This document shows, in pieces, positions 10,438 to 40,445 of a stretch of 59,515 bases of DNA (positions within the stretch are counted from its first letter, which is position 1; the number at the start of each line of letters is the position of its first letter). The notes under the pieces are model-generated. The model was given only the letters and a program-made list of their open reading frames with translations. It made no database searches and was not told where the DNA came from. The position numbers were made by a program, and so were the translations under genes. This stretch comes from a virus. Its lineage: Duplodnaviria > Caudoviricetes. The DNA lies in the IMG/VR virus record IMGVR_UViG_3300022699_000433, positions 1 through 59,515 of that record; one strand, given 5' to 3'.

Positions 10438-10440
10438 GAA

Positions 10441-14142: not shown

Positions 14143-14158
14143 GTGCTCTCCTTGGCTA

Positions 14159-14740
14159 CTAGCCATATATTTTTACCCGATAGTTTCCCAATACATCACG
14201 CTCTTTAAGGGCCATAAACCGCAAGCCGGTTGTCCCTTCAATAGTACCTGGATAGAAAAGGATCGTGGTTAGTGATGTCTTGCCCTGCATCTGATCAAGC
14301 AACTTGGAGATGTGATAGATCCCAGGAGCCATTACTGCTGAGCGCAGCAGAAAAACAACTTGCATGGAGGGATTCAAATCTTGAAGGCGCTCCGTCAGGA
14401 GCTCTGCAAGAGGCCGCCAATCTCGGTCCGACAGATACGTGGTGATCTGCTCCTGGGCTGCAAGGAAGCCCCGCTCTTTTTCGAGGGCAACAACCGCCTC
14501 GATGCCTTCCGTATCCTCAATGGCCTTCCAGAGAAGATCCGACATGTGAATGATACCGGTATTTCTGTCCATATCTTCCAGCCGAGTAGCCAGCAACCGT
14601 GCTTCTCGACGAAGCGTCCATTCTTCCTCAGGGTCGTAGCGAAAGATGGCGAAGGGCAGATCGTGATACACGCTGATCCGAGGTGGCTCAGTCTTGAGGT
14701 CATCTTCAAGGATCTGTATTCGATCACCGAGCGATGACAT
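14159..14740 (-). CDS. brxB: BREX BrxB (DUF1788-like)
   Basis: 193 aa; FAIFRYDPEEEW, ILFYPG, C-terminal GNYR; position between brxA and brxC. Confidence 0.85.
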   Translation of the reverse strand: MSSLGDRIQILEDDLKTEPPRISVYHDLPFAIFRYDPEEEWTLRREARLLATRLEDMDRNTGIIHMSDLLWKAIEDTEGIEAVVALEKERGFLAAQEQITTYLSDRDWRPLAELLTERLQDLNPSMQVVFLLRSAVMAPGIYHISKLLDQMQGKTSLTTILFYPGTIEGTTGLRFMALKERDVLGNYRVKIYG

Positions 14741-17649: not shown

Positions 17650-18705
17650 TCATTTGTGCTTTTTACTCTTGTTTTTAGGAATGGTAATGGCCGGCAGCAT
17701 CTCTACCGTGGAGCGAAGCAGGGTCATGTCGCTGTGCTGGTAGATGCGGGCGGTGGTATCGGGCCGGGAGTGGCCGAGGATGTCGGCTGTCGGCCGTGTG
17801 CCCCCTCCCATTGAAAGGATCGCAGTGGCAAAAGCGTGACGGAAGGCGTAGGGAGTAAGCTTGCGCCTGATGCCGGCTTTTTCTTTGGCTGTTCTAAAGC
17901 TTTTGATGATCCGGTTCACGGGCCTGCCGCGAAAGGTAATGATGGGACCTTGAGAATCAGCTGCTTGTCGACGCCATTTCTTGAGTTGTGCCGTTAACAC
18001 CGGGTGCAGCGGTGCCCTCCTGAAAACAGGTCCTCCCTTCCGGCTTGAGCGAATGAGGATGGTTCGCTCCTTAAAATCTACATCAGCCCAGGTAAGCTTC
18101 AAAAGTTCCGTGGCACCGGGCCGGATCCCTGTGTAATAGCTGATAACCAAAGCCTTGACCAGGTGCGGCGGGCAGTATTGCAATAACCGATTGATTTCAT
18201 CGAGGGTGGGAGGGTTAATGATCTCATCGTCCCTGGTCGGCTTTTTGTAGCCGGCGATAGGGTTGTGCATGATGTGCCGTCGGGATACCGCCCAGTTGAT
18301 GATAGCCTGGATGTCGGAGAGCTCCCGGTGCACGGTGGTGCGTTTTACACCCTGCTGCAGGCGCCTGGCCACATATTGATCCATGCGGCGCATCGTAAGC
18401 GCAAGTATATTGGCAGTGCCCAGCTCGGGGAGGATAACGCTTTTCAGTTTATAGTAAAGCGCATTGCTGCTGCTGGTGGCAAGCAGGCCTTGTTTAGCCT
18501 CCAGGTATTGGTTGGCAAGATCTTCGAAGGTGGGGGCGTATTCGCCGGGCGTGCGTTTTTGATAGGGCCTGAGATCGAGTTCGTCGTTTCGTTCGCGCGC
18601 CTTCCGCTCGCCCTCCAGGCCCCGTCCGAAATATTCCCATCTGACTTTGCCGTCTTCCCGGTGCACCACCGCCCAGCGGCCGTCTTTGCGAAGATGTACA
18701 GACAT
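17650..18705 (-). CDS. phage tyrosine integrase
   Basis: 351 aa; YTGIRP, YAFRHAFAT, LGHSRPDTTARIY; adjacent to att. Confidence 0.93.
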   Translation of the reverse strand: MSVHLRKDGRWAVVHREDGKVRWEYFGRGLEGERKARERNDELDLRPYQKRTPGEYAPTFEDLANQYLEAKQGLLATSSSNALYYKLKSVILPELGTANILALTMRRMDQYVARRLQQGVKRTTVHRELSDIQAIINWAVSRRHIMHNPIAGYKKPTRDDEIINPPTLDEINRLLQYCPPHLVKALVISYYTGIRPGATELLKLTWADVDFKERTILIRSSRKGGPVFRRAPLHPVLTAQLKKWRRQAADSQGPIITFRGRPVNRIIKSFRTAKEKAGIRRKLTPYAFRHAFATAILSMGGGTRPTADILGHSRPDTTARIYQHSDMTLLRSTVEMLPAITIPKNKSKKHK

Positions 18706-23896: not shown

Positions 23897-24619
23897 ATGC
23901 CGAAACGAGTGTATGATCTATTCTTCGAACCGGGCGAGGTGGTGGAGATCCGCGCGTTCGGCCTCGCCGGCAAAAACAGGGCCTGGCAGGACTATGCCCG
24001 GAAAAACGCCGCCGTTTCAGGCTACTTTAATAATGCCGAGGACTTCGCCCGCAGCGCCCAGGCCCTGGAGGTCGCCAAGGCGACCGGGGTGTATTTCACC
24101 CTCAACCCCTGTGATCCTTCCCTGCTTGCCCGGGCCAATAACCGCCTCGTGGCACAGCCGAAAGCCACCACCAGCGACCAAAATATCAAGTGTCTGCGGT
24201 GGCTGCCCATTGACCTGGATCCCAAGCGGCCATCGGAGATCAGCGCCACCGACCAGGAGATAAAAGAAGCCGAGACCCTCGCCCGCGACATTACCCACTG
24301 GCTGGAGGGAGACCTGGGTTTTTCCAGGGGTATTAGGGGCTTTTCGGGCAATGGGTACCACATCGTGTACCGTCTGCCGGATCTGCCCAACGACGATGAG
24401 CACAAAGGGCTGATCAAAAAGGCACTCCAGGCGATTGAGGAGAAATTCCGGAACACCAACGTCCTGGTCGACCTCACCGTGTTCAACCCGGCCCGGATCT
24501 GGAAACTTTACGGGACCACCGGCAGGAAGGGCGATTCAACCCCCGATCGGCCGCATCGCAAAAGCTACCTCTTTTCTGAGCAGGCGGCCACGTTGTCGGA
24601 GGTGGAGGTGACCGTGTGA
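23897..24619 (+). CDS. AEP-like primase catalytic domain
   Basis: VYFTLNP, IDLD, SGNGYH, NPARIWKLYGT. Confidence 0.8.
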   Translation: MPKRVYDLFFEPGEVVEIRAFGLAGKNRAWQDYARKNAAVSGYFNNAEDFARSAQALEVAKATGVYFTLNPCDPSLLARANNRLVAQPKATTSDQNIKCLRWLPIDLDPKRPSEISATDQEIKEAETLARDITHWLEGDLGFSRGIRGFSGNGYHIVYRLPDLPNDDEHKGLIKKALQAIEEKFRNTNVLVDLTVFNPARIWKLYGTTGRKGDSTPDRPHRKSYLFSEQAATLSEVEVTV

Positions 24620-26451
24620 ACCTGGAACAGCTGAAGCAGCTGGCCGCCATGGCTCCCGTGGAGGAGTCCCCCTATCCCCCCGCCCCCGCGCAAGGACCGA
24701 AGACCGCTTCCAGACGAGGCGAGGTCCGGCCTATGGAGAACACCCTCGGCACCCTTGAGCTGGGGGCGTACCTCACCCACTACGGCATCGACTACAAGAC
24801 CAAGCAGCAGGGTGCGCTGACCCTCTATCTACTCAAAGAGTGCGTCTTCGATCCCAACCACAGCCCCTACGAGGCCTCTATCTGCTATTCCCCTACCCCG
24901 CCGTTTCTGACCTACCAGTGTTTTCATCAAAGCTGCCGGGGCAAGACCTGGAAAGAAGCCCGGCGGGCGATCTCGGGCGCTGATTCGCTGGCCCCTTTCT
25001 GCGCCAACTACGATCCCCAGTGGAAGCAAAAGAAATCGGAGCTCGGTACCCGGTTGATGGTCGACCTGGATATCGGCCCGGTGGACCCTTTAGAGACAAG
25101 GAGTGATATCATGGTGCACGGACAACCCCTGCCCCCTCCGCGGGAAATAGACCCCCTGGAGTTCTTTGATCTGCGGGGCAAACGACCCCAGTTCGTCGAG
25201 AACTGGATGGCGAAGTACCTGGCCGCCCAGCTCGGACCGATCTGCTACACCGAGGGCGTGTATTGGCGCTATGAGGGAGGCGTGTGGAAGGAGTTTCCCC
25301 AGGAGGTGATCAGGCAGACGGCCCAGCAGGCCATGAAAGACAGAGTCAAGTCCACCTACATCGACAACAGCATGAAGATCCTGGCCGCCCTGGTGAAGCG
25401 CACCGAGGCCCAGTGGACGACCGACGACCGGTATGTCAACTGCAGAAACGGCATGGTGGACCTCAAGGAGGCCGCGCTCCTGCCGCATGACCCGGCCTAC
25501 CGGAGCAGGACCCAGATTCCCTGCAACTTCGACATGAACGCCACCTATGACCGGTGGCTGCGGTTCCTGGAGGAAGTGTTTCCCGAGGATGACCAGAAAA
25601 AGCCCGGCGAGCTCGGCAAGGCGGATCTGCTCCAGCAGTTCTTCGGCTATTGCCTGCTCGGTGACTGCCGGTACCAGAAGGCCTTGTTCTTATACGGGGT
25701 GGGTGCCAACGGCAAGAGTACGGCCATCAATGCCCTCATCTCCGTTTTGGGGATCGAGAACACCTCCACGCTCACCATCGAGGACATGTCGGAGCGGTTC
25801 ACCACCCATTTCCTCCAGGGGAAGCTCCTCAACTTCGCCACCGAGACCAACACCCGAAACCCCATGGACACCGAGAAGTTCAAGGCTGCGGTGCGGGGCG
25901 ATCCCCTGAAGGCCGAGCGGAAGTACGGCTCTCCCTACAACTTCTCACCCACGGCCAAGTGGGTGGTGGCCATGAACGAGGCCCCGGTCATCCCGGATAA
26001 GACCCCGGGGTTCACCCGGAGCATCATCGTGCTCGAGTTCAAGCACCGATTCGTGGGCGGCGAGATCGACTACGGCCTCGGCGAGAAGCTGGGCGCAGAG
26101 CGGGACGGGATCTTCATGTGGACCCTGTTCGGCCTGGAGCGGCTGCTCAAGCGAAACGGCTTTGCTATTCCCTCCAAGGTCGAAGAGGAAGGCCGGGAGT
26201 TTATGCGGGCGCTGAACCCCTTGCTGCTCTTTGTTGATGAGGAATGCACTATGGGACCCCAGGAGGAAGTAGGAAGCACCGAGTTCTACAATCGGTATAA
26301 GGAGTGGTGCAGCGACGGGCACAACCGGCCGCTCAGCAGGAACAAGTTCGCCGACCAGATCCTCATGCACTGGCCGGAAGTGACCAAGGGATGGATTGGA
26401 GAGACGACGCAAAGGAAACGTGGCTTCAAGGGGATAGGGTTAAAAGTCTAA
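24616..26451 (+). CDS. P4/D5-family SF3 helicase with N-terminal Zn-binding region
   Basis: NCRNGMVDL, GVGANGKST Walker A, C..H..CFHQSC, C-terminal YKEWC winged helix. Confidence 0.9.
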   Translation: MNLEQLKQLAAMAPVEESPYPPAPAQGPKTASRRGEVRPMENTLGTLELGAYLTHYGIDYKTKQQGALTLYLLKECVFDPNHSPYEASICYSPTPPFLTYQCFHQSCRGKTWKEARRAISGADSLAPFCANYDPQWKQKKSELGTRLMVDLDIGPVDPLETRSDIMVHGQPLPPPREIDPLEFFDLRGKRPQFVENWMAKYLAAQLGPICYTEGVYWRYEGGVWKEFPQEVIRQTAQQAMKDRVKSTYIDNSMKILAALVKRTEAQWTTDDRYVNCRNGMVDLKEAALLPHDPAYRSRTQIPCNFDMNATYDRWLRFLEEVFPEDDQKKPGELGKADLLQQFFGYCLLGDCRYQKALFLYGVGANGKSTAINALISVLGIENTSTLTIEDMSERFTTHFLQGKLLNFATETNTRNPMDTEKFKAAVRGDPLKAERKYGSPYNFSPTAKWVVAMNEAPVIPDKTPGFTRSIIVLEFKHRFVGGEIDYGLGEKLGAERDGIFMWTLFGLERLLKRNGFAIPSKVEEEGREFMRALNPLLLFVDEECTMGPQEEVGSTEFYNRYKEWCSDGHNRPLSRNKFADQILMHWPEVTKGWIGETTQRKRGFKGIGLKV

Positions 26452-27222: not shown

Positions 27223-27328
27223 AAAAACGATCGTTTTTCTTACTCCCTGACTGTCAAAGAATATCCTTTACATCATTATATGAATGATGGTAATATCAGC
27301 CCGAAATGGAGGTTTTCTTTGACAGTCA
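27223..27328. promoter_or_regulatory. res-like site upstream of the serine recombinase
   Basis: Palindrome AAAAACGATCGTTTTT (27223-27238); 14-bp inverted pair TGACTGTCAAAGAA (27248-27261) / TTCTTTGACAGTCA (27315-27328). Confidence 0.55.
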
Positions 27329-27347
27329 CTGGAAAGGGAGACAAAAC

Positions 27348-27947
27348 ATGGCAAAAGTCACAGCATACATCCGGGTGAGCAGCGACAAGCAAGACGTCGA
27401 GAATCAGCGTCTTGAGATCCTCAAGCTGGCCAACGAACAAGACCTCGGTTCAGTCACCTTCATCGAGGAGACCATCTCCGGGAGAAAGTCCTGGCATGAG
27501 CGTAGGCTTGCCCAGGTGATCGAAGAGCTCAAAGAAGGCGATGCGCTCATCGTGGCCGAGCTCTCCAGGCTCGGGAGATCCATGTTGGAGATCATGGAAA
27601 TCCTCAGTATGGCCACCCAGCGGTATATCAAGGTCTACGCCTCCAAGGGCAACTGGCAGCTCGACGGATCGATGCAGTCCAAGATCATCGCCATGGTCCT
27701 GGCCATGGCAGCCGAAATAGAGCGGGATTTGATATCGCAGCGCACCAAAGCGGCCCTGGCCACCAAGAAGGCAGCCGGCGTCAAGCTGGGAAGACCTTCC
27801 GGGCCTGGCAAGTCCAAGCTTGATCCCCGGAAAGATGAGATCCTGGAGCTCCTGGAACTCGGGGTAACAAAAAAGAGAGTAGCCCAAAAGATGGAAACCA
27901 ACGTCGGTAATTTAAATCATTGGCTGAAGAAGCGGGCCTTGGGGTGA
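27348..27947 (+). CDS. small serine recombinase (resolvase/invertase)
   Basis: AYIRVSSDKQ, LSRLGRS, ERDLISQRTK, GVKLGRP, C-terminal HTH; GGGAG RBS. Confidence 0.93.
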   Translation: MAKVTAYIRVSSDKQDVENQRLEILKLANEQDLGSVTFIEETISGRKSWHERRLAQVIEELKEGDALIVAELSRLGRSMLEIMEILSMATQRYIKVYASKGNWQLDGSMQSKIIAMVLAMAAEIERDLISQRTKAALATKKAAGVKLGRPSGPGKSKLDPRKDEILELLELGVTKKRVAQKMETNVGNLNHWLKKRALG

Positions 27948-28284
27948 GCGCCACGCTGAACTGGCTGCTGGGAGTTGAGTTTGAGGCAAGACAAGAAGAG
28001 GATTTTAGAAACGTCGAAAATCGGAAATCCGGGGATCGGAGTCCCGTCCCCCGTCATCACCTTGGCTGCTGTGGAAATTTGCCAACTTTTTACTCTCACC
28101 TATATCCTTGATCGAAATTAAGGGGAAGAGGGGAAGTTGATAATATGTGTTATCACGATAAGCAATTGAGCTTTATGATCCATTCTCCATGAAACGAAGA
28201 AAACAATCTGCGAATGGGCATGGTTTTAGAAACCAAAAAAAGATATTAATCCCCACCTCGCTGCCCATTAGGCTTTTATAGCTG

Positions 28285-28334
28285 AATGATATCCAAAGAT
28301 ATCTAGTCTGTTCTCAAATCTGGATCGTGGCAAG
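28285..28334. repeat. 50-bp direct repeat, copy 1
   Basis: 46/50 identical to 31590-31639 by manual alignment. Confidence 0.85.
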
Positions 28335-29401: not shown

Positions 29402-30220
29402 ATGCCAAAAGTAGTTCCTAGCCAAGTTGTTGAAGTAATAGATCAAGTCTTTCCTAATGCAAAGGATCAAAAAGATACTAAGCAGAATCGTTTTTCTATT
29501 GGTAGAACATACCAAAATGAATTGGCGGCAATAGTTGAGCTTGTCGATCAGATTCCAGCAGAGTTGATAAAGCTTGACCCAAAAGATTACACAGCCCTCC
29601 AATTGGCTGTTACTGCAATAGAAAATACATTACCTACATGGAAACGACGCGAATATGGATTGGATTGTATACATGGTCATGGAAACCTCAACCCCGTTAC
29701 AATAATCAGAAATGCTCTTTCCGAATGCCCAGATGAAGGGGTATCAAAATCGGTATCTGATTTAACCTTTATATCCGTTCAAGAGTTGAGAGAAAGCCTG
29801 CGAATCGACATTAGCTCAGCAAATCAGGCATTTCAAAATGGTGAATGGAAAGCCGCTACTGTACTTGCTGGAGCAACAATCGAAGCTATTTTGCTATATG
29901 TACTGCATACGGTGCAGGATTCCGATCCGTCCAAAATATCATCATCTATAACCACACTTGTTTCAAATGATATTCTTGGGAGTTCTCCCGGGAATGATCT
30001 TGATAAATGGTCACTCCATCCATTAACAGAAGTTGCCGCCGACCTCAGCTTGATTAGAGAGGAAACTGCAATTCAAATAAGGATAGCACGTGACTTTAGA
30101 AATCTTATTCATCCTGGGGTTTCTGTGCGAAAAAACATAGTTTGCAATAGAGGAACAGCACTTTCAGCATTAGCAGCACTTGAGCATACTATAAATGATC
30201 TAAGTGCAAATTCACCGTAA
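29402..30220 (+). CDS. HEPN/DUF4145-like protein
   Basis: 272 aa; KAATVLAGATIEAIL and RDFRNLIHP. Confidence 0.65.
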   Translation: MPKVVPSQVVEVIDQVFPNAKDQKDTKQNRFSIGRTYQNELAAIVELVDQIPAELIKLDPKDYTALQLAVTAIENTLPTWKRREYGLDCIHGHGNLNPVTIIRNALSECPDEGVSKSVSDLTFISVQELRESLRIDISSANQAFQNGEWKAATVLAGATIEAILLYVLHTVQDSDPSKISSSITTLVSNDILGSSPGNDLDKWSLHPLTEVAADLSLIREETAIQIRIARDFRNLIHPGVSVRKNIVCNRGTALSALAALEHTINDLSANSP

Positions 30221-30236: not shown

Positions 30237-30309
30237 GTTTAACATCAGCTTTGAGAAGGATGCTCATTCCACCTCGCTTCATTCGCATCTCTCAAGCTTG
30301 TCGTTATGC
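30237..30309 (+). other. integron attC site
   Basis: R'' GTTTAAC-N5-L'' CTTTGAGA ... L' TCTCAAG-N6-R' GTTATGC with one extrahelical base. Confidence 0.8.
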
Positions 30310-30378: not shown

Positions 30379-31137
30379 ATGAAAAATAATTTAATAAAAT
30401 CAATTGAGGTATTCATAGAGCAAATTGTAGAATGCCGAGATAAATGGACAACCAAAGGAAGGCCGTGGTTCAGAGGCCAAAGAATAGATAGGCCATTACT
30501 TCCCCGATTATTCAGAGAACATTATGATGAGAATGAACTTGTTCAGATATTTAGGATGAAAGCTCCTATGCTATATGAAACACCAAATAAAAGCGAATGG
30601 GATAAATGGCTGTGCCTTATGCAGCATTCAGGTGCCCCCACAAGATTACTTGATTGGACAGAAGGAGCGTTGATTGCCTTATATTTTGCAATATATAAAT
30701 TTAACAAAAAAAACAGTAAACCTGTTGTATGGATGATGGACCCATTAATCCTTAATCAAATATCAATTGGTCAATTGATATACCCGCTTTCATTTTCTGG
30801 GCCGGGAATAAAAAATTTTCATTATGCATTTGAGAAAAGTTTAGACGCCTACGAAAAACCGGTAGCTCTTTATCCTGTAGAAGTCCATATAAGAATGAGT
30901 GTCCAAAAGAGTTGTTTCACTATACATGGAATTGACAACCGTAGTATAGAAGAGATTTTCTCTAATACTCATTTATTAAAGGAGAATTATTTAGTTAAAT
31001 TTAACATAGATATTAATTCTTGCGAAGAAATGTTGTCTATATTGAAGACCCTAGGCATTTCCCATTCCACTCTTTTCCCCGACATTGACGGTCTTGGATT
31101 TGAATTATCACAATATAAAATGATTGAAGCCAATTGA
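30379..31137 (+). CDS. FRG domain protein
   Basis: WFRGQ, MQHSGAPTRLLDWT, RMSVQKSCF, LFPDIDG. Confidence 0.9.
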   Translation: MKNNLIKSIEVFIEQIVECRDKWTTKGRPWFRGQRIDRPLLPRLFREHYDENELVQIFRMKAPMLYETPNKSEWDKWLCLMQHSGAPTRLLDWTEGALIALYFAIYKFNKKNSKPVVWMMDPLILNQISIGQLIYPLSFSGPGIKNFHYAFEKSLDAYEKPVALYPVEVHIRMSVQKSCFTIHGIDNRSIEEIFSNTHLLKENYLVKFNIDINSCEEMLSILKTLGISHSTLFPDIDGLGFELSQYKMIEAN

Positions 31138-31423
31138 GATGAAAAAATTACGATTTCTGCTATATTAGTAGCCACAGATATTTAGGTATTATCATTCAGC
31201 TCATAAGAAAATCAATTTCTGCAAATTAAAGAATACGATAAAGATTAATGAAATATATCGATATTCAAGTGTGATTATCCTATTCTTGAGTTACAACCAG
31301 CTTTTACGTATCAATCATATCAGAAGTAATCATTAGCGACACCGCAACATATTGTATAGCCCGGATCACGGCCAAAAGCTGCGATCACTGCTATATAGGG
31401 CAGTTTTCTTTTCAGCCTTGAAA

Positions 31424-31486
31424 CCTGAGATTTCCACTGGAAACCTGAAAATATCAGCCACCCCAAACCCCTGTGATCTGTCTGCC
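31424..31486. repeat. ~63-bp dispersed repeat, copy 2
   Basis: CCTGAGATTTCCACTGGAAACCTGAAAATATCAGCCA...CCTGTGATCTGTCTGCCC; same orientation as 16229-16291. Confidence 0.8.
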
Positions 31487-31589
31487 CCATCCGGATTGTG
31501 TCTCTCATTGCCGGTAGTCTGCGATTTTGGGCAAGAATCAATAACACTGAATTTATGAGCGAGCTCCTCGCTGGCGAATACGTTAACTA

Positions 31590-31639
31590 AATGATATTCA
31601 AAGATCTCTGGTCTGTTCTCAAGTCTGGATCGTGGCAAG
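31590..31639. repeat. 50-bp direct repeat, copy 2
   Basis: AATGATATTCAAAGATCTCTGGTCTGTTCTCAAGTCTGGATCGTGGCAAG. Confidence 0.85.
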
Positions 31640-31826
31640 GTGTCTTAAACTAAAACTTATCAATTTTCACTACTCAAAATCTTTCATCTAGATTGTATGT
31701 GCCTTTTCTATGGTGGGATTTTACTAATATGTTGTTGTCTTTCTCTCTTCTATTTCTCCTCTACTCCACCACTACGCCCGCCTCGCCCTCTCTCGCTTTG
31801 CTCGCTCGGCCCGTATTGAGATTTGT

Positions 31827-32516
31827 TTAAGGTGAATGATCTGTTGCAGAAATTCTTATCTTTTCCTTTGCTTTTTCAAAATCGTCTGTGCATCCACCAT
31901 TCCATTCAATATAAAAATATTGAGAATTAGATTTAGCGTTTTCCGCAAATACTTTTATTTCGAAACAATATTTTCCGGGACCAAATGCAGATCTTTGGCC
32001 AGTAGTGGGAGATTCATCCGAAAGAATGAATTTATCAGGATGCGTAGTCCTGAACATGCCAAGAGCAAATTGATAGGGCTTTCTAGGTATTAAATTTCTT
32101 TCACCTCCACCTCCAAAAGCCCACAGGAGATTTTTTGGAAGCCAATTTATGTCTTTTACCCACTTCCCCGCCTTATTATCCCATACAGATAGTATTACTG
32201 GTTGGCAGCTGTTAGCCAGTGTTTTGCCGTTATTAATGAGGGGTATAGTAATCGGATAACTAAATCCAGCTTGTTCGTTTTTTCTATTGAGTAATGGTGC
32301 TTGCCGAAAATATGGAGGCTCTTGTTCAAATGGCATGAATTCCAAGATAGGACGGTTAAACCGGATAAGTATCCCTTGTTGAAAAACAGCCCAAACAACC
32401 GCAGAGACAGTACCTATAGCCGCCATTGCTATCCAAAATAAACGACCGAAACATATTGCACCAACCACAATTATAGCAAGAATTAGTATAACTGATCCGA
32501 TTATGATTGCAGTCAA
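31827..32516 (-). CDS. membrane-anchored hypothetical protein
   Basis: 229 aa; two N-terminal hydrophobic helices, then a beta-rich domain; start uncertain. Confidence 0.6.
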   Translation of the reverse strand: MTAIIIGSVILILAIIVVGAICFGRLFWIAMAAIGTVSAVVWAVFQQGILIRFNRPILEFMPFEQEPPYFRQAPLLNRKNEQAGFSYPITIPLINNGKTLANSCQPVILSVWDNKAGKWVKDINWLPKNLLWAFGGGGERNLIPRKPYQFALGMFRTTHPDKFILSDESPTTGQRSAFGPGKYCFEIKVFAENAKSNSQYFYIEWNGGCTDDFEKAKEKIRISATDHSP

Positions 32517-32700
32517 TCGTTTGCTCCAACACTCTTTATAGATTCTCTACCCCCCGGCCGGTCACAAGACTCGGGACGCTATGTCCCTCTCGAAATGCTC
32601 CAATGCAAAAGTCATTCGTACCTGGTTGAATCCGATCCTACGAAGCAACATGATATAAAACGGCGAGCGAGTAATTCCTTTTTACGGGATTGATCTAATC

Positions 32701-33642
32701 CTATTTTTCTTTTCTGTGGATCTTATCGTGACAAACCGTGCAAAGGGTTATTAAGTTATCTTTGATGTTCTCACCGCCTTTCACGTGGTGCTTGACATGA
32801 TGCAATTCCAAATGCCGAGGATCCGAGGGATTCCATTCTTTATGCATCCAGCCGCATTCACGGCACTTATATCCATCGCGACGCAGGACCTCTCTTCTGA
32901 CATCATCGGGAATATGTCGATCATGTTCCGGACTCCGCCGATCAGCCTGCAGGACATAAATCCCGATGCCTAAATCAGGCCGACCGGTTGATTTTGTCAC
33001 CACCGGCCAACCAAATTCCGTGCGAAGCTCACGCACACGCCGCGCCCATTCCGTTTTATCCCCGGCGACGTAGCGCAGTTCTTCCCCGGTGACTCCAACC
33101 CCCACATTCGCCCGGAGAAAGCTCAGGATTTTGTCACGCACGGAACCGGGTTGCTTGCGGATCGTGTTCGCGATATTCCACCGTAAAGCCGCTTCACGGT
33201 CCTGTTCGGCGGTGAGCAGCACGTACTGACTGGGTTTCATGGTCTTGAATTCGGACGGCACTTCCGCATCCTCGGCTTCGCCCATCTCAGTAATTGTGAC
33301 GCCGCTCGCGATCGCCCAGCCGAATTGAACTCTGAGCTCGCGTACCCGCCTCGCATATTCCTGAATACCGGCAACGACAAGTAATTCGTCCCCGTCAATA
33401 ATGGTCCGGGGATACTTGCGGAAGTAGTAAAGAATTCGCTCCCTTGCCGATGCAGCATATTCGACCGGGATCAATGACTTGCCCAGGTCGCGCAATCCGT
33501 GAAAGATCGGAACCAAAGCAAGTACTTTTACCCGAAGTTCTCCCGATCGAAGTTCCGCTTCGAAATTTCTGATCAGCTCTTCGACTCTACTCCGAACGGC
33601 TTCGGTTTCTATCTGTTTCCGCTTGCTTCCCCTGCTTGTCAT
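32701..33642 (-). CDS. HNH endonuclease, probable restriction enzyme
   Basis: CRECG...ELHH...N..DNLITLCTVCH; duplicated ARRVRELR..FGW modules; coupled to vsr and the MTase. Confidence 0.85.
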   Translation of the reverse strand: MTSRGSKRKQIETEAVRSRVEELIRNFEAELRSGELRVKVLALVPIFHGLRDLGKSLIPVEYAASARERILYYFRKYPRTIIDGDELLVVAGIQEYARRVRELRVQFGWAIASGVTITEMGEAEDAEVPSEFKTMKPSQYVLLTAEQDREAALRWNIANTIRKQPGSVRDKILSFLRANVGVGVTGEELRYVAGDKTEWARRVRELRTEFGWPVVTKSTGRPDLGIGIYVLQADRRSPEHDRHIPDDVRREVLRRDGYKCRECGWMHKEWNPSDPRHLELHHVKHHVKGGENIKDNLITLCTVCHDKIHRKEK

Positions 33643-34045
33643 CTAAGAATCTTTCCAGCTTCCGCAACAGTTTTGCAGGCCTCCGGGTTTCGCATTCCCA
33701 GACTACCAGCACTTTCCATCCCATGCGCCGCAATGTCCGTTGGAATCGCTTATCGCGGTTCATGGTTTGATCAAGTTTCTTGTTCCAAAAGTCCGTATTC
33801 GTTTTCGGGCGCTTTGATCGCGAGCAACCCTTGTGCCCGTGCCAAAAGCAGCCGTGCACGAAAATCACCTTGCCGTGCCGCGGCAAAACAATATCCGGAT
33901 TGCCCGGAAGATCGCGTCGATGAATCCGAAACCGAAATCCCATGCGATGAACGAACGATCGAACCACGATCTCCGGCTTTGTATCGCGCCCCTTGACCCG
34001 ACTCATGATCCAGCTGCGCTTCTCCTTTGAGAAAACATCGGTCAT
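33587..34045 (-). CDS. vsr: very short patch repair endonuclease
   Basis: RSWIMSRVKGRDTKPE, LPGNPDIV, FVHGCFWHGH, VVWECE. Confidence 0.95.
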   Translation of the reverse strand: MTDVFSKEKRSWIMSRVKGRDTKPEIVVRSFVHRMGFRFRIHRRDLPGNPDIVLPRHGKVIFVHGCFWHGHKGCSRSKRPKTNTDFWNKKLDQTMNRDKRFQRTLRRMGWKVLVVWECETRRPAKLLRKLERFLDDKQGKQAETDRNRSRSE

Positions 34046-34046
34046 T

Positions 34047-35285
34047 TCACCGGTCGTTCATCGTTAGAAGCAGGTACACAACATCGGCAACGCGGGCGGC
34101 GAGCAAAGGGGGGACTGCATTACCGATCTGTTTTGCAATCTCGATTTTTGTGCCGGCAAAAGAAAAATCATCGGGGAACGTTTGGAACCGCGCGGCTTCT
34201 CTGTGTGTAATCGGTCGATGTTGTTGCGGATGAAGATATCGGCCCTTTTCGGGCTTGAAGAATTCCGTCCGGATCGTAAACGCCGGTTTATCCCACCACA
34301 GCCTTCCAAATAGATCCGTACCCCCGGTTTTTTTCCGTATCCAGCAGTCCGGCGTAAGATCGGGGGCGATTCGCTGTAAGTCAAACCGATTCATCCCTTC
34401 GGCCGGTACGGCTCTGTATCTTTTCCGGCTCAATTCGGTCGGGTTGCGGCCGAAATGTAGATCCAACGGAGGCTCGGCACTTGTGATTTCAGTTCCTTCG
34501 GGAAGAGGCAAGTCACCTATAGCATCTCTAACGGTTTTCCATTTTTCACAATTCGGCATGTGATTATTGTCGTGATTAAAAAAAGAGCTCGGTTGAACGC
34601 TGTTTCCGTTTGGATTGTAATGAGTTTTCCTGGGAGGAAACAATATTGCAGGATCAGCAAATTTGCATCCTATGATAAAGGCGCGAATGCGTGTTTGAGG
34701 GACACCGTAATCGGCGGAAAGGAGCTTGGCCTGCCAAACCTTGAAACCTAGAGATTTCGCCATTCCGACAATCTCGTCGTGCTCAAAGGTACCTAATAGA
34801 TAAGGAACATTTTCCATAACAAACACGGAAGCCCCGGCCCGATCAACTATCTCAAAAAAAGGTCTCCATAATTCTTTTCTTGGATCGTTCTCTCGATTTT
34901 TGTTCAAAAGACTGAAGCCTTGACAGGGAGGCCCTCCAATCACCACATCGGCTTCCGGAATTTCAAGCTCACTATCATCTAAAAACTCGATTATATCGCC
35001 AAAGACACAGTGCCCACCAAAATTTTTGTTATAAGTATCGACACAAAATTTATTATTATCGTTGGCCCAAATCGGCTTGAAGAGGTGACCGAAACGCTCC
35101 GAAAATCCCAATGACATCCCGCCTGCGCCAGAAAAAAGGTCGATAAGGTGAAAGTTTGTCTCCTTTTTTAAGAGATCACCGGCACAGCGAGCTTCGTAGA
35201 TTTCCTCATCCTTTCTCAGGATATGATTTCTATCAATGTTTATCGCATTATCGGTTAAGGGCATCCCGACCCGTATTTCATTCAA
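34047..35285 (-). CDS. C5-cytosine DNA methyltransferase
   Basis: DLFSGAGG, GGPPCQGFS, ENV, QTRIR, QIGNAVPP; start uncertain. Confidence 0.95.
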   Translation of the reverse strand: MNEIRVGMPLTDNAINIDRNHILRKDEEIYEARCAGDLLKKETNFHLIDLFSGAGGMSLGFSERFGHLFKPIWANDNNKFCVDTYNKNFGGHCVFGDIIEFLDDSELEIPEADVVIGGPPCQGFSLLNKNRENDPRKELWRPFFEIVDRAGASVFVMENVPYLLGTFEHDEIVGMAKSLGFKVWQAKLLSADYGVPQTRIRAFIIGCKFADPAILFPPRKTHYNPNGNSVQPSSFFNHDNNHMPNCEKWKTVRDAIGDLPLPEGTEITSAEPPLDLHFGRNPTELSRKRYRAVPAEGMNRFDLQRIAPDLTPDCWIRKKTGGTDLFGRLWWDKPAFTIRTEFFKPEKGRYLHPQQHRPITHREAARFQTFPDDFSFAGTKIEIAKQIGNAVPPLLAARVADVVYLLLTMNDR

Positions 35286-35570
35286 GAGATATTAAATTAG
35301 TCAAAACGTCCTGCTTCACCGTTTACAATATCTAGTTTATGCTATTAAGGATTACACCAATATATTGTATAAGGTCAATATTAAAATCGATTGAATCTAT
35401 ATACTATAGATAGACCATCCGTCCTCTATTAGTTAGGCGCTCAGTCGAGTCATTACGTCTCACCCGATAGAGGATTCTCAAAATATTTGCTGAGAGCCTC
35501 AACAGCGATTTCCTCCGTTGCCTCGCCCGCTTTGCCGCTTCACGGTGGAGGAATGCGACCAGGATCTCTG

Positions 35571-35628
35571 GCGAGGGATTGCGCGCTCAGTGCGCTATTC
35601 CTCGTCGCTGTCCATGTCATTGTTGGCC
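35571..35628 (-). other. truncated attC (R''/L'' half only)
   Basis: GGCCAAC-N5-CATGGACA plus hairpin GCGACGAGG...CCTCGC; L'/R' absent; R'' is complementary to GTTGGCC at the cassette start. Confidence 0.65.
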
Positions 35629-36479
35629 GTCTCCTTTTGTTCCAGTTCTTTTAGGCTAACTCCTTTCTCGTTCTTCCATGCGATGAGTCCGTTTGCGTGG
35701 CCGCCATGGATGACCGAGGCGGCGGCGCTGGGACTTGAGAATTCATAGTCTTTTGCGAAAACAAGCCTATCTGTTTCTTTGGTGAGAGTGCCTTCGGAGA
35801 GGAGTTGAGAACGGACAGTCGAAGGATATGGATACTTCTTGACGGAAGGCCGTTCTTCAAGAACAGCCTCTGATCCCTTTAGAACAAGAAAGCCGTTCTC
35901 TGTTGGCCGACCACTTGCCTTTACCATCTTGATGGTGCAGGTCAATAGTTCAGAGGGTGTAACCGGCAGGGAGAGCTTGACGACGGGCTTGAGAAAATCC
36001 TGTCCAAGGACTGGTAGTAGTTGCTCAACCTTTGCCAAGAACACATTCATGTCTGCCGCATCGGACTCAGGAAGGTGGGATCCGCTTGCGTTCGTGTTTT
36101 CCAACTCAAACCGGTCTGCCGCCTTCGTCATCTCGATAAGTTTACCTTCAAGGTATTTGATGTGGGCCTTGGTGAGGTTTTCGTCCTTGCTGACGAAGAA
36201 AATGACGGTCTTCCAAAAATCCCGATCGAAATGCCCCTTCAGCCTTGATCCGACGATTTCGGCCTCACCGACGTAGACCCTCGGCTTCCCCGTTTCGGCG
36301 TTTATTCCGGTCAGAAAGTAGATCCCCGGCTTCTTCGCTTCCTCTCGTTGCAGGACCAGCTCTAGCTGTGACCGTGGGCCTGCCACAGCTTTACCTGTCC
36401 AATTCGATATTTCCGCTGTTCTAATGGAGGCCGGATCACCTTCCGCCAAAAATATCTTTACCGTTGCTGTCTCTTTCAT
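35595..36479 (-). CDS. GIY-YIG nuclease-family protein with DUF4357-like C-terminus (gene cassette)
   Basis: GIYFL...VYVGE, KYLE, FSSPSAAASVIHGGHANGLIAWK; AAGGAG RBS right after the attC core. Confidence 0.88.
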   Translation of the reverse strand: MKETATVKIFLAEGDPASIRTAEISNWTGKAVAGPRSQLELVLQREEAKKPGIYFLTGINAETGKPRVYVGEAEIVGSRLKGHFDRDFWKTVIFFVSKDENLTKAHIKYLEGKLIEMTKAADRFELENTNASGSHLPESDAADMNVFLAKVEQLLPVLGQDFLKPVVKLSLPVTPSELLTCTIKMVKASGRPTENGFLVLKGSEAVLEERPSVKKYPYPSTVRSQLLSEGTLTKETDRLVFAKDYEFSSPSAAASVIHGGHANGLIAWKNEKGVSLKELEQKETANNDMDSDEE

Positions 36480-36489
36480 ATCTCTCCTT

Positions 36490-36613
36490 GGCCAACGCTC
36501 TGCTTCACAGGGCACAAAAGGTATGCGGACTGTAGGCGCAGTGCGTTTAATGATGAAGCTATTTTTGCCAAAGCCGCCCGCCTTTTGTTCTCCTGTGCAA
36601 GCGGTTGTTATGT
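36490..36613 (-). other. integron attC site (124 bp)
   Basis: R'' ACATAAC-N5-L'' CTTGCACA (extrahelical G) ... L' TGTGAAG-N6-R' GTTGGCC. Confidence 0.88.
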
Positions 36614-36617
36614 AATT

Positions 36618-37424
36618 TTATTTGAGTATTCTAACAATCTCGCCCAATAGAACATCTATATCATTTGAAAAATTAACCTGTGTCGTATTTGGAAGAGATT
36701 CTTTTCTCCTAATTTGTGTATGCAAATGTTGGTCTGCAATTTTTCTTGATGAATTTTCAAGATGCTGCATAGATTCTTTGAAAGATCTCGAGCCGCCATA
36801 ATTATTAGCTACTTCCAGAAATGTTTTATATGAAAAAATGGGCGGAACATGATCAAGCAAAACCCTTGTCAGTGTGATAATAGAAATATTACACTGGTTT
36901 TTGTAACACGTATTTAATTCTTCCAGAATTTTGATCAGCCGCGATAGATCAAAATACGTAGCTGCAATTTCTTTCAACTCCTCTAAGCGTGATCTATCCA
37001 CGTATTGCCGGTCTTGTGATGTGTCATTTGATGACTCACCATTTTGTTTGATTTTCAATCGTAGTTCTTTCTGAAGAATTGAGACCAAATTATTGGTCCT
37101 ATCCATATCTGGAGTATCGCAGGTAATAAACAAATCGCCATGATATCTTGATTCTATATAGATTACAGAAGAACCATCGCTTTTAGGGTAATAGCTGAAC
37201 AAAAGGCAGGAAACGGCATTATGATTTATTTCTGAAATGGCGTCCAAGTCATTCCAACCTAAATTTTTTGTTTCACTAATTCCATTAGCATGATTAAGAT
37301 GTGCAGTTAAGGAACACTTCTTTTCATCAATACCCAGAAAAATTGGCAGTTGCTTGAAGGCGTTTTTTATTTGACCCGGTTTAAAGGTAATTGGATGGTA
37401 AAATCTTGAAAGACTTGCACTCAA
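36618..37424 (-). CDS. hypothetical protein (gene cassette)
   Basis: 268 aa between two attC sites; C-terminal LSRLIKILEELN...RVLLDHVPPIF...RKIADQHLH domain. Confidence 0.75.
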   Translation of the reverse strand: MSASLSRFYHPITFKPGQIKNAFKQLPIFLGIDEKKCSLTAHLNHANGISETKNLGWNDLDAISEINHNAVSCLLFSYYPKSDGSSVIYIESRYHGDLFITCDTPDMDRTNNLVSILQKELRLKIKQNGESSNDTSQDRQYVDRSRLEELKEIAATYFDLSRLIKILEELNTCYKNQCNISIITLTRVLLDHVPPIFSYKTFLEVANNYGGSRSFKESMQHLENSSRKIADQHLHTQIRRKESLPNTTQVNFSNDIDVLLGEIVRILK

Positions 37425-37452
37425 ATCATTTCTCCTAAATACTGAGTATTAG

Positions 37453-37520
37453 ACATAACGCCGAATTAACCGGCAGCCGGGCGCTCTTTTCCGGCTGTCC
37501 GGTTGAATGAGATGTTATAT
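37453..37520 (-). other. integron attC site (68 bp)
   Basis: R'' ATATAAC-N5-L'' ATTCAACC ... L' GGTTAAT-N5-R' GTTATGT; stem CAGCCGG/CCGGCTG; two extrahelical bases. Confidence 0.88.
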
Positions 37521-37560
37521 GGCATTTATTTATCTCTCAAAATCTGTGTTTAAATTCTCA

Positions 37561-37761
37561 CTATTGAATATATTCTTGATAATATTGACAGTTTCTGCAA
37601 TAAGCCCGAGCCTTTTCAACCTCCGGTAAGGTGACTGTATCAAGATCCTCACCTGACTTTTTTTCGTGCCAAAGAAAGGCTCTATTAACAATATCCTGTT
37701 TTGGGCATCGCTTCTGCATAAAGGGCAAACAAGTTAGCCATCGGTCTTCATTTTCTTGCAT
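37561..37761 (-). CDS. small Cys-containing protein (66 aa)
   Basis: ATG after AAGGAG; C..C..CRNC. Confidence 0.5.
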   Translation of the reverse strand: MQENEDRWLTCLPFMQKRCPKQDIVNRAFLWHEKKSGEDLDTVTLPEVEKARAYCRNCQYYQEYIQ

Positions 37762-37792
37762 TTTGGACTCCTTCCATAAACTGTCCCCATGA

Positions 37793-38632
37793 TTATATCT
37801 TATCCGCTTTCTCCCTGTTACAATGCTCACACAATATTTGAATATTCCTTTCGGTATTGCTTCCCCCTTTTGAAAGTGGGATTATATGATCAAATTCCAA
37901 ATTTTCTTTACTGCCGCATTTGACACATTGCCCACCATCCCTTCTCCAAACAAACATCCTGACGCTTTCGGATATTGGCTCTCTGGATATTCCTGTTTCA
38001 GACGCTAATCGTTCAATTATTTCTAGTTCCTTTTGGAATTTCTCAAGCTTTTTCTGCTCTCTTACGTAATACTTTTTTATTATTAACTTCTGGTCTTCTT
38101 CGCTATGAATATCAGCGGTATTAAAATAGTAAAGATTATCTTTGTATATATAGAACGTAAATACACTAAATGTTTCTGCTATTTCTCGCTTCTTATCATC
38201 TATTTTATTTCGCGCGACTTCCACCCTCTCTTCAAATTTAGCCAAAGCTTCTCCATATTTATCTTGGGCTCTTTCATTTTTGTCATCGTCTCTCATGCTC
38301 GCGAGCAGTTTTCTTTCCTGAAGGTTATCATATGCTCTATTCCAAGACGAAGACGTGGGAGAGGGAAGATTTTCAGGCACATAAGTATGATGAAAGGCGG
38401 GCCGACTGGGGGGCACATTTGGAATTTTGATGTTGCTACAGTCGATATCCGATAAAATTCCAGTGATAGGTTGTGGTTCATGCATTTGGTTATTACAAAC
38501 TTCGTGTAAAGGCTTCGCTGAGGAAAACAAGATTGAGCATGGGCGTCCACATATTTTTATTGTGATCTGATCAAACTTTTTTTTCTTATCTCCCGGTTTA
38601 ATAAATCCCCTGCTTAAAATTTTCAACGCCAT
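37793..38632 (-). CDS. HNH endonuclease
   Basis: VWRRDGGQCVKCG...EFDHIIPLSKGGSN...NIQILCEHCNREK; AGGAGG RBS. Confidence 0.9.
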   Translation of the reverse strand: MALKILSRGFIKPGDKKKKFDQITIKICGRPCSILFSSAKPLHEVCNNQMHEPQPITGILSDIDCSNIKIPNVPPSRPAFHHTYVPENLPSPTSSSWNRAYDNLQERKLLASMRDDDKNERAQDKYGEALAKFEERVEVARNKIDDKKREIAETFSVFTFYIYKDNLYYFNTADIHSEEDQKLIIKKYYVREQKKLEKFQKELEIIERLASETGISREPISESVRMFVWRRDGGQCVKCGSKENLEFDHIIPLSKGGSNTERNIQILCEHCNREKADKI

Positions 38633-38704
38633 ATGAAGCCTCCTAAATCATGGGCGTTTTTAAGCAGACAAAAAGTAGGCATAAATTTTCCTATAAATCT
38701 TTTA

Positions 38705-39196
38705 TTAAATAGCATTGTCATGTTCTATTATTACTGCTTTTGCCTTTAAAAAGCCTTTTTCATGGCTTGATCCTCTTAATTCGGTGAGAGGACCCTGCTT
38801 GTTCGGTGGGGACTCTGGAATCTGGACATATTGTTCTATTCCACTTGCATCAACCATTTGCCAGAACGATTCATCTGGACGGGTTGTCCGTTCCTCATAA
38901 TTGGCATGATGAAGGAGGCAACTGCTTGCCGCCATATTAGAAACGGCAATCAGTGCGAAAGGCATTTGGTCAATACTCTTGTCTTTTATATCTATGCGTT
39001 GAAGATTTATGCAGATTACCACTCCTGCATCGCATGTTGAAGCAACGACAACAGCTTCGCAACATTTTCCCCTGAGCCCTTCAGGAATGATTGAGGGGAT
39101 GCAATCTTGATTTAATACACGATATTCTCCTGGATCACAAATCCTGCTAACCTCCTCAACTTCCTCCTTTTCCACATGAAAGAACTGACACTTCAT
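38705..39196 (-). CDS. hypothetical protein, first gene after the attI-like region
   Basis: 163 aa ORF; AGGGGG upstream. Confidence 0.6.
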   Translation of the reverse strand: MKCQFFHVEKEEVEEVSRICDPGEYRVLNQDCIPSIIPEGLRGKCCEAVVVASTCDAGVVICINLQRIDIKDKSIDQMPFALIAVSNMAASSCLLHHANYEERTTRPDESFWQMVDASGIEQYVQIPESPPNKQGPLTELRGSSHEKGFLKAKAVIIEHDNAI

Positions 39197-39203
39197 TTTT
39201 GTC

Positions 39204-39285
39204 CCCCTAAACATATATCATTGTGGATAGATGGAAAATTTTCTATATATTACCCTTATACAACAGAATATTTTCCACCTATTCC
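39204..39285 (-). other. attI-like region
   Basis: Between the intI remnant and the first array gene; imperfect inverted repeat GGATAGATGGAAAAT / ATTTTCCACCTATTCC; imperfect core GTTTAGG. Confidence 0.4.
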
Positions 39286-39349
39286 TATATTTTGGATTAA
39301 GATGCTGAAAATAACGCACTGATTTTTCACATTTTCTCAATATAATTTT

Positions 39350-39433
39350 ACGGAAAATAAGGCAAAATTCAGATCAGTTCTGCACCTCAAGCTTATGGAT
39401 CAGGTGCGGCAGGTACTTCGCTAGCTTCATTGC
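39350..39433 (+). pseudogene. intI: integron integrase 5' remnant
   Basis: ACG in place of ATG, then ENKAKFRSVLHLKLMDQVRQVLR*LHC, resembling the IntI N-terminal KL(L/M)DQVR..LR..HY motif; divergent from the attC array. Confidence 0.7.
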
Positions 39434-39619
39434 GAGCAGCATAGCCCAGGTAACATGTTTCTTCATATTGACCTACGCTGTATCGGGGTAGTTTATATAT
39501 ACTCCCTACAGTTTTGAAACCGGGTTTGTCAAGGTTTTTGATGAGCAAGGGGGATACGGCAACCATAGACCGAGAATATGGAAAAAATCATTGTCAAGTA
39601 TTTTTTATGAAAAAGTTTT

Positions 39620-39654
39620 GTCTCACCGTGTCTCAATCCGTCTCGGTGCGTCTC
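39620..39654. repeat. four GTCTC units at 10-bp period upstream of the packaging operon
   Basis: GTCTC at 39620, 39630, 39640, 39650. Confidence 0.75.
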
Positions 39655-39788
39655 AATGAGAGCCCTCCTTTTTGATCGGCAATTCAATTCAAAAAACCCG
39701 TGCTATAGTTTTATTCAAAAGAATACTGCAGCTCGATCTATTCATTCATAGCAAGCCGTCAGATGATTAGTTTGCATCGTTTATAACC

Positions 39789-40445
39789 ATGGCCGCTAAA
39801 ACCACCAAGATAGAGAAGCACAACCTGGGGCCGCGCGTCCTGCGGATGCTGTTGAAAGAGGGCAAGACCAGCGCCCAGATCGCCGAAACGCTCACCAGGG
39901 AAGGCATCAAGATTTCACAGCCCACGGTGTCGCGGTTTATTAAGGCGCAGCGGGAGAACGCCCGCGACGAGGTGCAGGATATCCTGCACGACCACGTCCA
40001 GAGGGAGCTGCCCAAGGACCTCACGGCGCTGGAGGAAATGGAGCGGATCTGTTTGGCCTGGGCGCAAGAGGAGCCCGATACCACGGCGGAACGGGTATCG
40101 CTCTGGCAAAAGGTGATGGAGCAGATCCCCGTATGGAGAGAGAAGATCATCACCTATTCGGATTTGGAAACCAAGGACAAGGCGCAGGTGATCCGCGGCT
40201 TCATCGAGCAGGTCACCCGCTGGCTCCTCGAAGATATCAACATACAGAAACAGCGCATCAACGCCATGCGCATGGCAACGAGCATCATCGATACCAAACT
40301 GAAATACTCCGGCGTTCTCCGGGAAGACGAAGGAAGCAATATTATCATCGCCGGGCAGGACGACCGGCAAGCGGATACCGGCGAGAGCGACGGCGACGGG
40401 TACAAAACCTTGCACGTGGTAGGAAAAGAGACCCATGGCGAATGA
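39789..40445 (+). CDS. probable terminase small subunit (HTH)
   Basis: KTSAQIAETL...ISQPTVSRFI HTH; directly upstream of and overlapping the large subunit. Confidence 0.65.
   Translation: MAAKTTKIEKHNLGPRVLRMLLKEGKTSAQIAETLTREGIKISQPTVSRFIKAQRENARDEVQDILHDHVQRELPKDLTALEEMERICLAWAQEEPDTTAERVSLWQKVMEQIPVWREKIITYSDLETKDKAQVIRGFIEQVTRWLLEDINIQKQRINAMRMATSIIDTKLKYSGVLREDEGSNIIIAGQDDRQADTGESDGDGYKTLHVVGKETHGE

Follow-up and report, generated by a model that had tools for sequence, protein, structure and literature searches.

Organization of the locus

We analyzed a stretch of viral DNA of 59,515 bases, IMG/VR record IMGVR_UViG_3300022699_000433 (at its full length hereafter called the window), focusing on the region at ~35.6-39.45 kb, which a first-pass annotation had described as a decayed integron embedded in a prophage. 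Linear and incomplete (CheckV completeness 69%), the record comes from an uncultivated temperate phage of bacteria of the sulfate-reducer/Desulfobacterota type. The region forms the right end of an AT-rich block (~28.1-39.7 kb), in which the GC content is 0.36-0.46, in comparison with ~0.60 in the structural genes. As had been proposed, the genes of the region lie on the minus strand and diverge from an intI-like remnant on the plus strand.

The proximal cassette (cassette 1, 37521-39257, minus strand) contains three open reading frames (ORFs), all of them on the minus strand: an ORF of 169 aa with no assigned family (38705-39214), an ORF of 279 aa that encodes an HNH endonuclease (37793-38632; Pfam HNH, E=8.6e-13; also matched by PHROG HNH families), and an ORF of 89 aa, or 66 aa from an internal ATG, again with no assigned family (37561-37830). 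The gene of cassette 2 (36618-37424, minus strand) encodes a protein of 268 aa from a large family that is uncharacterised and whose C-terminal domain is conserved. The gene of cassette 3 (35595-36479, minus strand; alternative start GTG at 36515) encodes a protein assigned by PADLOC to the defence-candidate family PDC-S14 with 342.7 bits, which also matches DUF4357 (E=3e-20) and phrog_12629. This gene had been labelled GIY-YIG; its match to GIY-YIG amounts to 12.5 bits, below the cut-off, and it is therefore better described as GIY-YIG-like, with DUF4357 and PDC-S14.

Identification of a canonical attC site

An attC site is an imperfect palindrome with the R''/R' cores RYYYAAC ... GTTRRRY, an inner L''/L' pair and short unpaired spacers; which strand is used is determined by extrahelical bases located on the bottom strand, in its 3' arm. 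Since Rfam has no attC model, we built our own covariance models; the Rfam collection itself gave 0 matches at the gathering score in the window and 7 weak, irrelevant matches in positions 31000-40000. The attC sequences were taken from 13 class-1 integron regions of plasmid records, in which 22 attC sites were delimited behind annotated cassette genes. Alignment of all 22 sites, and then of 13, with MAFFT misplaced the L boxes; 12 sites were dropped and the 10 in-register sites were kept. The first model, R1, was built from the bottom strands of these 10 class-1 sites, with the R, L and proximal stem pairs and with no phage input. The second, R2, combines 14 class-1 sites with 8 taken from related phages and was trained without the window. 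Held-out real attC sites were scored by R1 at 18-56 bits, and 5 of 12 (qnrVC1, cupin, ereA2, L088 gcu and dfrA1) were missed at E<=10; with R2, 11 of 14 held-out real sites reached at least 36 bits and the other 3 were missed, so that a miss by either model is weak evidence. As a background, R1 gave 2 matches at E<=0.01 in five Desulfobacterota metagenome-assembled genomes (MAGs; 19 Mb in all), with 150 candidates scored per genome.

When the whole window was searched with R1 on both strands and with filters off, a single significant match was obtained, at 37453-37520 on the plus strand, with 43.9 bits and E=4e-9, the runner-up in the window having 9.8 bits and E=4.6. The same site scored 47.6 bits (E=4.9e-10) with R2. 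The covariance-model check that had been suggested was thus positive for the complete attC proposed here, at exactly the coordinates claimed and on the expected strand. The site has the cores ACATAAC ... GTTATAT, a paired R box, unpaired spacers of 4 nt and a paired L box of 3 bp; beyond the L box come a bulged G, 6 bp and a bulged T, and the fold is completed by a 7-bp stem with a 10-nt loop (dG -15.7 kcal/mol, z=-3.6). The bulged G and T lie on the 3' arm of the bottom strand, as they do in the aadA1 attC folded identically, and these are the positions expected in attC. The bottom strand corresponds to the plus strand of the window, in agreement with the minus-strand location of the cassettes. 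The sequence at 37453-37520, the attC of cassette 1, is a bona fide canonical attC, and it is probably still recombinogenic. An exact 22-base piece of it was absent from the viral contigs.

Cassette junctions and the more distal sites

When crossover takes place between the G and the TT of the core (G/TT), the outer core of an attC comes to be complementary to the inner core of the attC next to it. This signature was found around the 268-aa gene, as the first-pass annotation had noted. The 3' core GTTATGT at 36607, belonging to a candidate site at 36490-36613 on the plus strand, is complementary at 7/7 positions to the 5' core ACATAAC at 37453, and GTTATGT occurs as a single plus-strand copy in the whole window; the empirical chance of finding it in the 138-base spacer is 0.010-0.013. 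The two cores of the candidate site itself are complementary at only 3/7 positions. The same can be observed in related phages, where 6 of 8 adjacent attC pairs are complementary at 7/7 positions across the junction and self-complementarity is mostly 3-4 of 7. R2 aligned 36490-36613 from end to end, with exact ends, and its fold has z=-1.3. We regard it as the probable attC of cassette 2, long and degenerate; the complete attC that had been placed here is supported by the junction core but only weakly confirmed, its score, which is given below, being insignificant.

At the distal end, the plus strand has a GTTGGCC core (35622-35628) that is the complement of GGCCAAC at 36490 and may be what is left of the distal attC. 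The complementary core proposed to bound the gene of cassette 3 is therefore present, but GTTGGCC occurs three times within 900 bases, at 35061, 35622 and 35902, and the half attC that had been placed at 35571-35628 was not confirmed.

The putative attI region and its homologues

The sequence between the proximal cassette and the intI remnant (39216-39349, plus strand) contains an inverted repeat pair of the TGGAAAAT/ATTTTCCA type, with arms at 39227-39244 and 39265-39282, followed by a second, degraded pair. Between the arms of the first pair lies the core ATACAAC (39258-39264), and the homologous sequences have ATATAAC or ATAAAAC in that column. The attC at 37453-37520 predicts ATATAAC at the junction with attI, which the core of the window matches at 6/7 positions.

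A DNA search with 39200-39560 gave matches at E<=0.01 in 70 of the 401 genomes belonging to the class of genome G001, which carries a related prophage. The best match had 71% identity over query bases 16-230 (E=1.5e-21). Matches of ~197-220 bases with 67-71% identity were obtained at nine places in seven genomes (G192, G061, G144, G092, G028, G040 and G039), and many genomes matched query bases 16-92 at 74-86% identity. Among 14 such loci searched for attC, 7 had attC matches, and in 6 of these (L151, L155, L157, L160, L161 and L162) the element is preceded by the attC on its own strand, as in the window. From its position and homology we regard 39216-39349 as a putative attI, in line with the attI-like region of the first-pass annotation; 39216-39445 is homologous to the attI and intI-start region of Desulfobacterota integrons.

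The first repeat pair (39216-39291) was also observed alone, lacking the intI fragment. Many genomes of the class contain it in this form (loci L160-L164), with 80-86% identity, some of them in several copies. Such lone copies are often located just downstream of attC sites; an attI relic, a binding site and a small mobile unit are all candidates for what they represent.

The intI stub

The pseudogene stub of intI (39350-39445, plus strand) was recognized by read-through translation, by tblastn and by DNA alignment. It has ACG at 39350 in the start position, followed by ~24 codons, TENKAKFRSVLHLKLMDQVRQVLR, and an in-frame TAG at 39422-39424; beyond the TAG an indel-ridden similarity fades, and the remaining ~300 codons of intI are gone. 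A complete integron has an intact intI, encoding a tyrosine recombinase with the IntI-specific insertion, and an attI that adjoins intI on its upstream side and heads the array; here only this stub of ~24 codons is left of intI.

The comparison was performed with the intI locus of genome G059, which is of the same class as a Desulfosarcina MAG hosting a related prophage and whose own IntI scores 429.5 bits. The N-terminus of this IntI reads MESQSKFQPDPKLRLMDQVKEVLRYHH, and the corresponding translation of the window reads TENKAKFRSVLHLKLMDQVRQVLR*LH. Using this IntI as the tblastn query, 29.6 bits were obtained (94 random pieces of 801 bases had their 90th percentile at 22.7 bits), whereas a permissive tblastn with IntI1 gave only 7/15 identities to residues 14-28; the tblastn check is thus positive with the IntI of the lineage and hardly so with that of class 1. 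The DNA alignment to the G059 intI locus, extending from ~140 bases upstream of the start to ~50 codons inside the gene, had a score of 111. Scores of the controls did not exceed 73 in 300 shuffles, 74 in 300 Markov resamples, 68 in 218 AT-rich pieces of the window and 62 in 1046 pieces of other loci. The intI-like 5' remnant claimed at 39350-39433 is therefore supported by a DNA homology to Desulfobacterota intI starts that lies far above the controls.

In a six-way alignment (A6; mean column identity 75%), which covers the attI region and the stub, the ACG of the window stands opposite ATG in three of the five other rows. The two remaining rows are displaced by a 7-base insertion at the start, and the translations have an ATG-GAA start in all five. 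The TAG of the window stands opposite TAT in four rows and TGT in one. Both the mutated start and the in-frame stop that had been pointed out are thus present in the sequence, at places where the homologues have ATG and TAT or TGT, respectively. Decay of the same kind is frequent among these homologues: in L158 (G092) the platform element is followed by an intact IntI frame, and in L155, L156, L157 and L159 by truncated stubs of ~27-95 residues, i.e., four of the five platform homologues examined have a decayed intI. The genome carrying a related prophage, G001, has an IntI-like gene (212 bits for half the model), whose 5' end is 83% identical to the stub over 40 bases. Genomes of the host lineage accordingly encode IntI-like genes.

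A search of viral contigs for the intI-start motif gave one match, L165, which was discarded as unrelated, having no IntI, no platform and no attC.

Homologues of the cassette 2 protein

The 268-aa protein has 840 homologues at E<=0.001 among 1273 candidates. A homologue of its gene in another genome, on contig G159:C2, is located between attC sites of 58.5 and 36.6 bits in the canonical orientation; this contig has four attC matches and the G159 genome 25, together with an IntI of 392 bits, its integron integrases lying above the family cut-off. One homologue, P0002, is 84% identical and is encoded on a 4.9-kb contig. Close relatives of the gene were not found in viral contigs, and the only functional leads are DUF4145/AbiJ-like clusters (0.84-0.85). 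In addition, hundreds of metagenomic proteins, mostly encoded on short contigs, share the C-terminal half of the family at 50-75% identity and differ in the N-terminal part attached to it.

Position within the phage genome and attC sites in related phages

The region is flanked by phage genes on both sides. To the left are a phage-type tyrosine integrase (17650-18705) and a replication module with a D5-type primase-helicase (24616-26451) and a resolvase/invertase (27306-27947); to the right, the small and large terminase subunits (TerS and TerL) and the portal are encoded from 39789 onward. The primase and TerS/TerL genes are syntenic neighbours in the related loci L003, L014, L016 and L037. 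In the window the interval between the primase and TerS amounts to 13.3 kb, as against ~7.5 kb in L014 and L037, 3.1 kb in L016 and 1.4 kb in L003, whose TerL is 67% identical. None of the cargo genes of the window was found in the 16 relatives examined, and a blastn comparison with 64 related loci gave as shared DNA only the resolvase and an 84-base piece following it. The comparison of intervals that had been suggested was thus informative, the slot between helicase/primase and terminase being variable in both length and content. Because the flanking genes are neighbours in the relatives, the integron fragment is cargo in a variable slot and not host flank.

R1 matches upstream of TerL were also found in four of the 22 related loci having at least 5 kb of upstream flank, namely L020 (5 matches), L028 (3), L037 (3) and L023 (1). 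All 12 matches are on the TerL-coding strand, like the site of the window. The arrays span 3324-4822 in L020, 3290-4883 in L028 and 4442-7248 in L037, and each ends in an exact core lacking an attC. L020 is recorded as a complete genome with terminal repeats and has no IntI; its array ends 14 bases before an excisionase-like gene and the phage integrase. In these relatives, the convincing ORFs share a strand with the attC bottom strand, an orientation opposite to that of normal cassettes; four bacterial loci have the normal orientation of ORF and attC. One identical attC site is common to L023 and L037, and blastn gave no attI/intI platform in the relatives.

Beyond these relatives, one L-box pattern picked 48 contigs of IMG/VR (L103-L150), 38 of which have attC matches at E<=0.01, with 131 matches in total. 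Several of the 48 contigs have 5-10 attC sites in a row, and some of them may be mis-binned integrons.

Other features of the window

A complete-looking type 1 bacteriophage exclusion (BREX) system is located at 278-15542 on the minus strand, with BrxA, BrxB, a BrxC-like protein, an Eco57I/MmeI-type methylase, a Schlafen AlbA_2/HATPase protein, PglZ and BrxL. The block adjoins the phage integrase gene and may be either host flank or cargo of the prophage end. Within the AT-rich block, a 56-base direct repeat (28279-28334 and 31584-31639, 89% identical) brackets a 3.3-kb unit of three plus-strand genes, one of which encodes an FRG-domain protein matching the defence candidate PDC-S15 with 151 bits; the unit resembles an insertion of its own, with the repeats as its ends. 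What appears to be a type II restriction-modification set is encoded at 32701-35285 on the minus strand, just past the distal end of the cassette array; it comprises a C-5 cytosine methylase, Vsr and an HNH protein with a match to REase_II.

The sequence following the resolvase gene, 28008-28091, is conserved in L014 (87% over 55 bases), L004 and L067 and may be the left border of the variable slot, all the cargo to the right of it being specific to the window. A weak attC-like site was observed at 30237-30309, with its bottom strand on the minus strand (R2 13.1 bits, E=0.51). It lies 17 bases past the stop of the plus-strand gene 29402-30220, in the canonical orientation, and has the cores GTTTAAC and GTTATGC and a bulged L box; by eye, no matching junction cores were seen in its flanks.

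Interpretation and alternative explanations

Taken together, the region at 35.6-39.45 kb is very probably the proximal end of a Desulfobacterota-type chromosomal integron, decayed and located inside a temperate phage. The interpretation is carried by the demonstrated platform homology, attC site, cassette junction signature and location inside the phage. It agrees with the earlier description of a decayed integron embedded in a prophage, given the homology of the stub and attI, a canonical attC in the expected orientation, and the placement of the block between phage genes that are neighbours in relatives. The co-oriented cassettes diverge from intI and end in attC, as in a complete integron, with one attC being significant, and the cores are complementary across the junctions (7/7 for the 268-aa cassette and 6/7 at the attI junction).

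From right to left, the locus would thus consist of an inactivated intI stub, the attI region, cassette 1 with its canonical attC, cassette 2 with a long degenerate attC, and cassette 3, whose attC would have been lost. The array would have been built, most likely in a bacterial chromosome, by an integron integrase that cut folded bottom strands at G/TT, and the platform may have been taken into the phage as a block, or else its decay may have followed capture. The element should be unable to move cassettes alone; the intact attC, and perhaps attI, could still serve a host IntI in trans. The loading of cassettes by a host IntI in trans, which had been raised earlier, is a conjecture beyond the present evidence. 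The nucleases and defence candidates of the cargo probably serve the lysogen against other phages.

It is important to mention that several results weigh against this interpretation. At the level of proteins, the TIGR02249 profile matched only the phage integrase in the window (39 bits) and not the stub, PF13495 gave nothing in the window at E<=10, Pfam gave nothing for the read-through peptide, and BLASTP of the stub against IntI1 gave nothing at E<=100. Since the profiles miss the stub, the case for it is made by DNA and short-peptide homology to lineage-specific integrons. Exact ATATAAC was looked for at the junction of cassette 1 with attI and was absent, and, owing to the lone copies of the repeat pair that lack intI, 39216-39349 may be either attI or another array-associated element. 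The candidate attC at 36490-36613 scored 10.7 bits with R2 (E=2.2), below significance, and was missed by R1 at E<=10; with this score, and with 3 of the 14 held-out real sites missed by R2, it belongs to a class of sites for which R2 cannot vouch. A targeted R2 search of the supposed half attC at 35571-35628 gave only -1.0 and -1.8 bits and no attC structure, leaving a 7-mer that recurs nearby. In addition, the three ORFs of cassette 1 have no attC between them, and the E-values of the models are rough because the calibration was short.

Could the locus contain no integron at all, the hairpin being a terminator or a chance palindrome in a phage moron region and the IntI resemblance mere noise? 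Phage accessory regions are rich in HNH genes and hairpins, the protein profiles miss the stub, and the second and third sites are not significant. We nevertheless find this explanation barely credible, because the attC was detected at E=4e-9 by a model built from class-1 sites only, and because the DNA homology to integron platforms, which extends over 197-220 bases, greatly exceeds every control; the reading of the hairpin as a terminator was rejected, as no T-run follows the main stem. Somewhat less remote, and still very improbable, is an assembly chimera or host flank, in which a chromosomal integron was joined to the phage by misassembly or by mis-trimming of the provirus. The record is linear and incomplete, its left 15.5 kb with BREX may be host DNA, integron arrays assemble poorly in MAGs, and the GC content falls from ~0.60 to 0.36-0.44 in the block. 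However, syntenic phage genes flank the block on both sides and are neighbours in the relatives, and attC arrays also occupy this interval in related phages, including one with a complete genome.

A different explanation accepts the attC sites and regards the intI stub as incidental. The locus would then be an active, phage-adapted cassette platform, i.e., a fixed attC slot upstream of the terminase that is supplied by a host IntI in trans. This is suggested by the attC sites upstream of TerL in L020, L028, L037 and L023, all 12 on the TerL-coding strand, by the complete genome of L020 that lacks IntI, by the perfect junction cores and the exact core lacking an attC at the end of each array, and by the cargo, which is different in every relative, the cargo genes of the window occurring in none of the 16. 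Against it, no excision or exchange events were observed, the relatives lack the attI/intI platform, their inverted ORFs may indicate a different history, L023, sharing an identical attC with L037, may not be an independent lineage, and the window has one sound attC only. We therefore consider such a platform improbable for the window. For the lineage as a whole, the idea that temperate Desulfobacterota phages use attC sites upstream of the terminase as a system for the exchange of accessory genes, with host integrases acting in trans and with the bottom strand fixed to the phage backbone and not to the cargo, is somewhat less improbable, and we put it forward only as a speculation. If it is true, the window would record a moment at which the donor platform had itself been pulled in. 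For the window, the preferred interpretation remains a decayed chromosomal integron carried as phage cargo.

Comparison with known systems

The first-pass annotation regarded such an arrangement as unfamiliar in temperate phages. However, the arrangement, although rare, has been known in phages since 2023, when integrons and clusters of attC sites lacking an integron integrase (CALINs) were reported: Qi et al. (2023, PMC9892861) screened 10,705 phage genomes and found 3 complete integrons, 1 In0 and 17 CALINs, the integron pieces including a truncated intI in a P1 phage, and they reported that phage attC sites recombine with attI1 and are recognised by IntI1. We found no report in the literature of integron elements in Desulfobacterota phages, the list of 17 CALINs in PMC9892861 not being covered by this search. 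The phages of Qi et al. resemble the window in being temperate, in having truncated intI, attI, attC and cassettes, and in carrying restriction/modification and defence cargo (PMC9892861). Their cases are phages of Vibrio, E. coli (P1), Shewanella, Tetrasphaera, Polaribacter and Pseudoalteromonas in NCBI (PMC9892861). The window, by contrast, represents an uncultivated phage of the Desulfobacterota type; its platform is specific to the lineage, its intI is heavily decayed, and only one attC is sound. The window thus extends the phage-integron reports of 2023 past Proteobacteria and a few cultured phages, with an integron platform, and not a stray attC alone, in a phage of an environmental anaerobe lineage.

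A likeness also exists to sedentary chromosomal integrons with an inactivated integrase, and to CALINs and single attC sites lacking an integron integrase (SALINs), as defined by IntegronFinder (PMC4889954, PMC9024848; for the term SALIN, bioRxiv 10.1101/2024.07.02.601686), which have attC-bounded cassettes and no working intI. The element of the window differs from these in being inside a phage genome rather than a chromosome and in having only one significant attC. A CALIN is defined by at least two attC sites; here there are one significant and one sub-threshold site, 840 bases apart, and a default CALIN call might not be made, only one attC passing significance.

The third comparison is with the integron cassettes that store defence genes, described by Darracq et al. 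(bioRxiv 10.1101/2024.07.02.601686) and Kieffer et al. (bioRxiv 10.1101/2024.07.02.601719). The cassettes of the window likewise encode compact nuclease and defence candidates (PDC-S14, HNH), their defence role being predicted. PDC-S14 has 0 occurrences in the main text of bioRxiv 10.1101/2024.07.02.601686, and according to the two preprints some such systems are also found in prophages. The locus joins two themes, cassettes as stores of defence genes and variable cargo slots in temperate phages, and it offers concrete candidate sites for an IntI-dependent exchange between phage and host, namely the attC at 37453-37520, the junctions 37458/37459 and the core 36607-36613. Finally, since attC arrays recur in relatives, among them a complete genome, the transport of cassettes by phages may be commoner among metagenomic viruses than the counts from cultured phages indicate.

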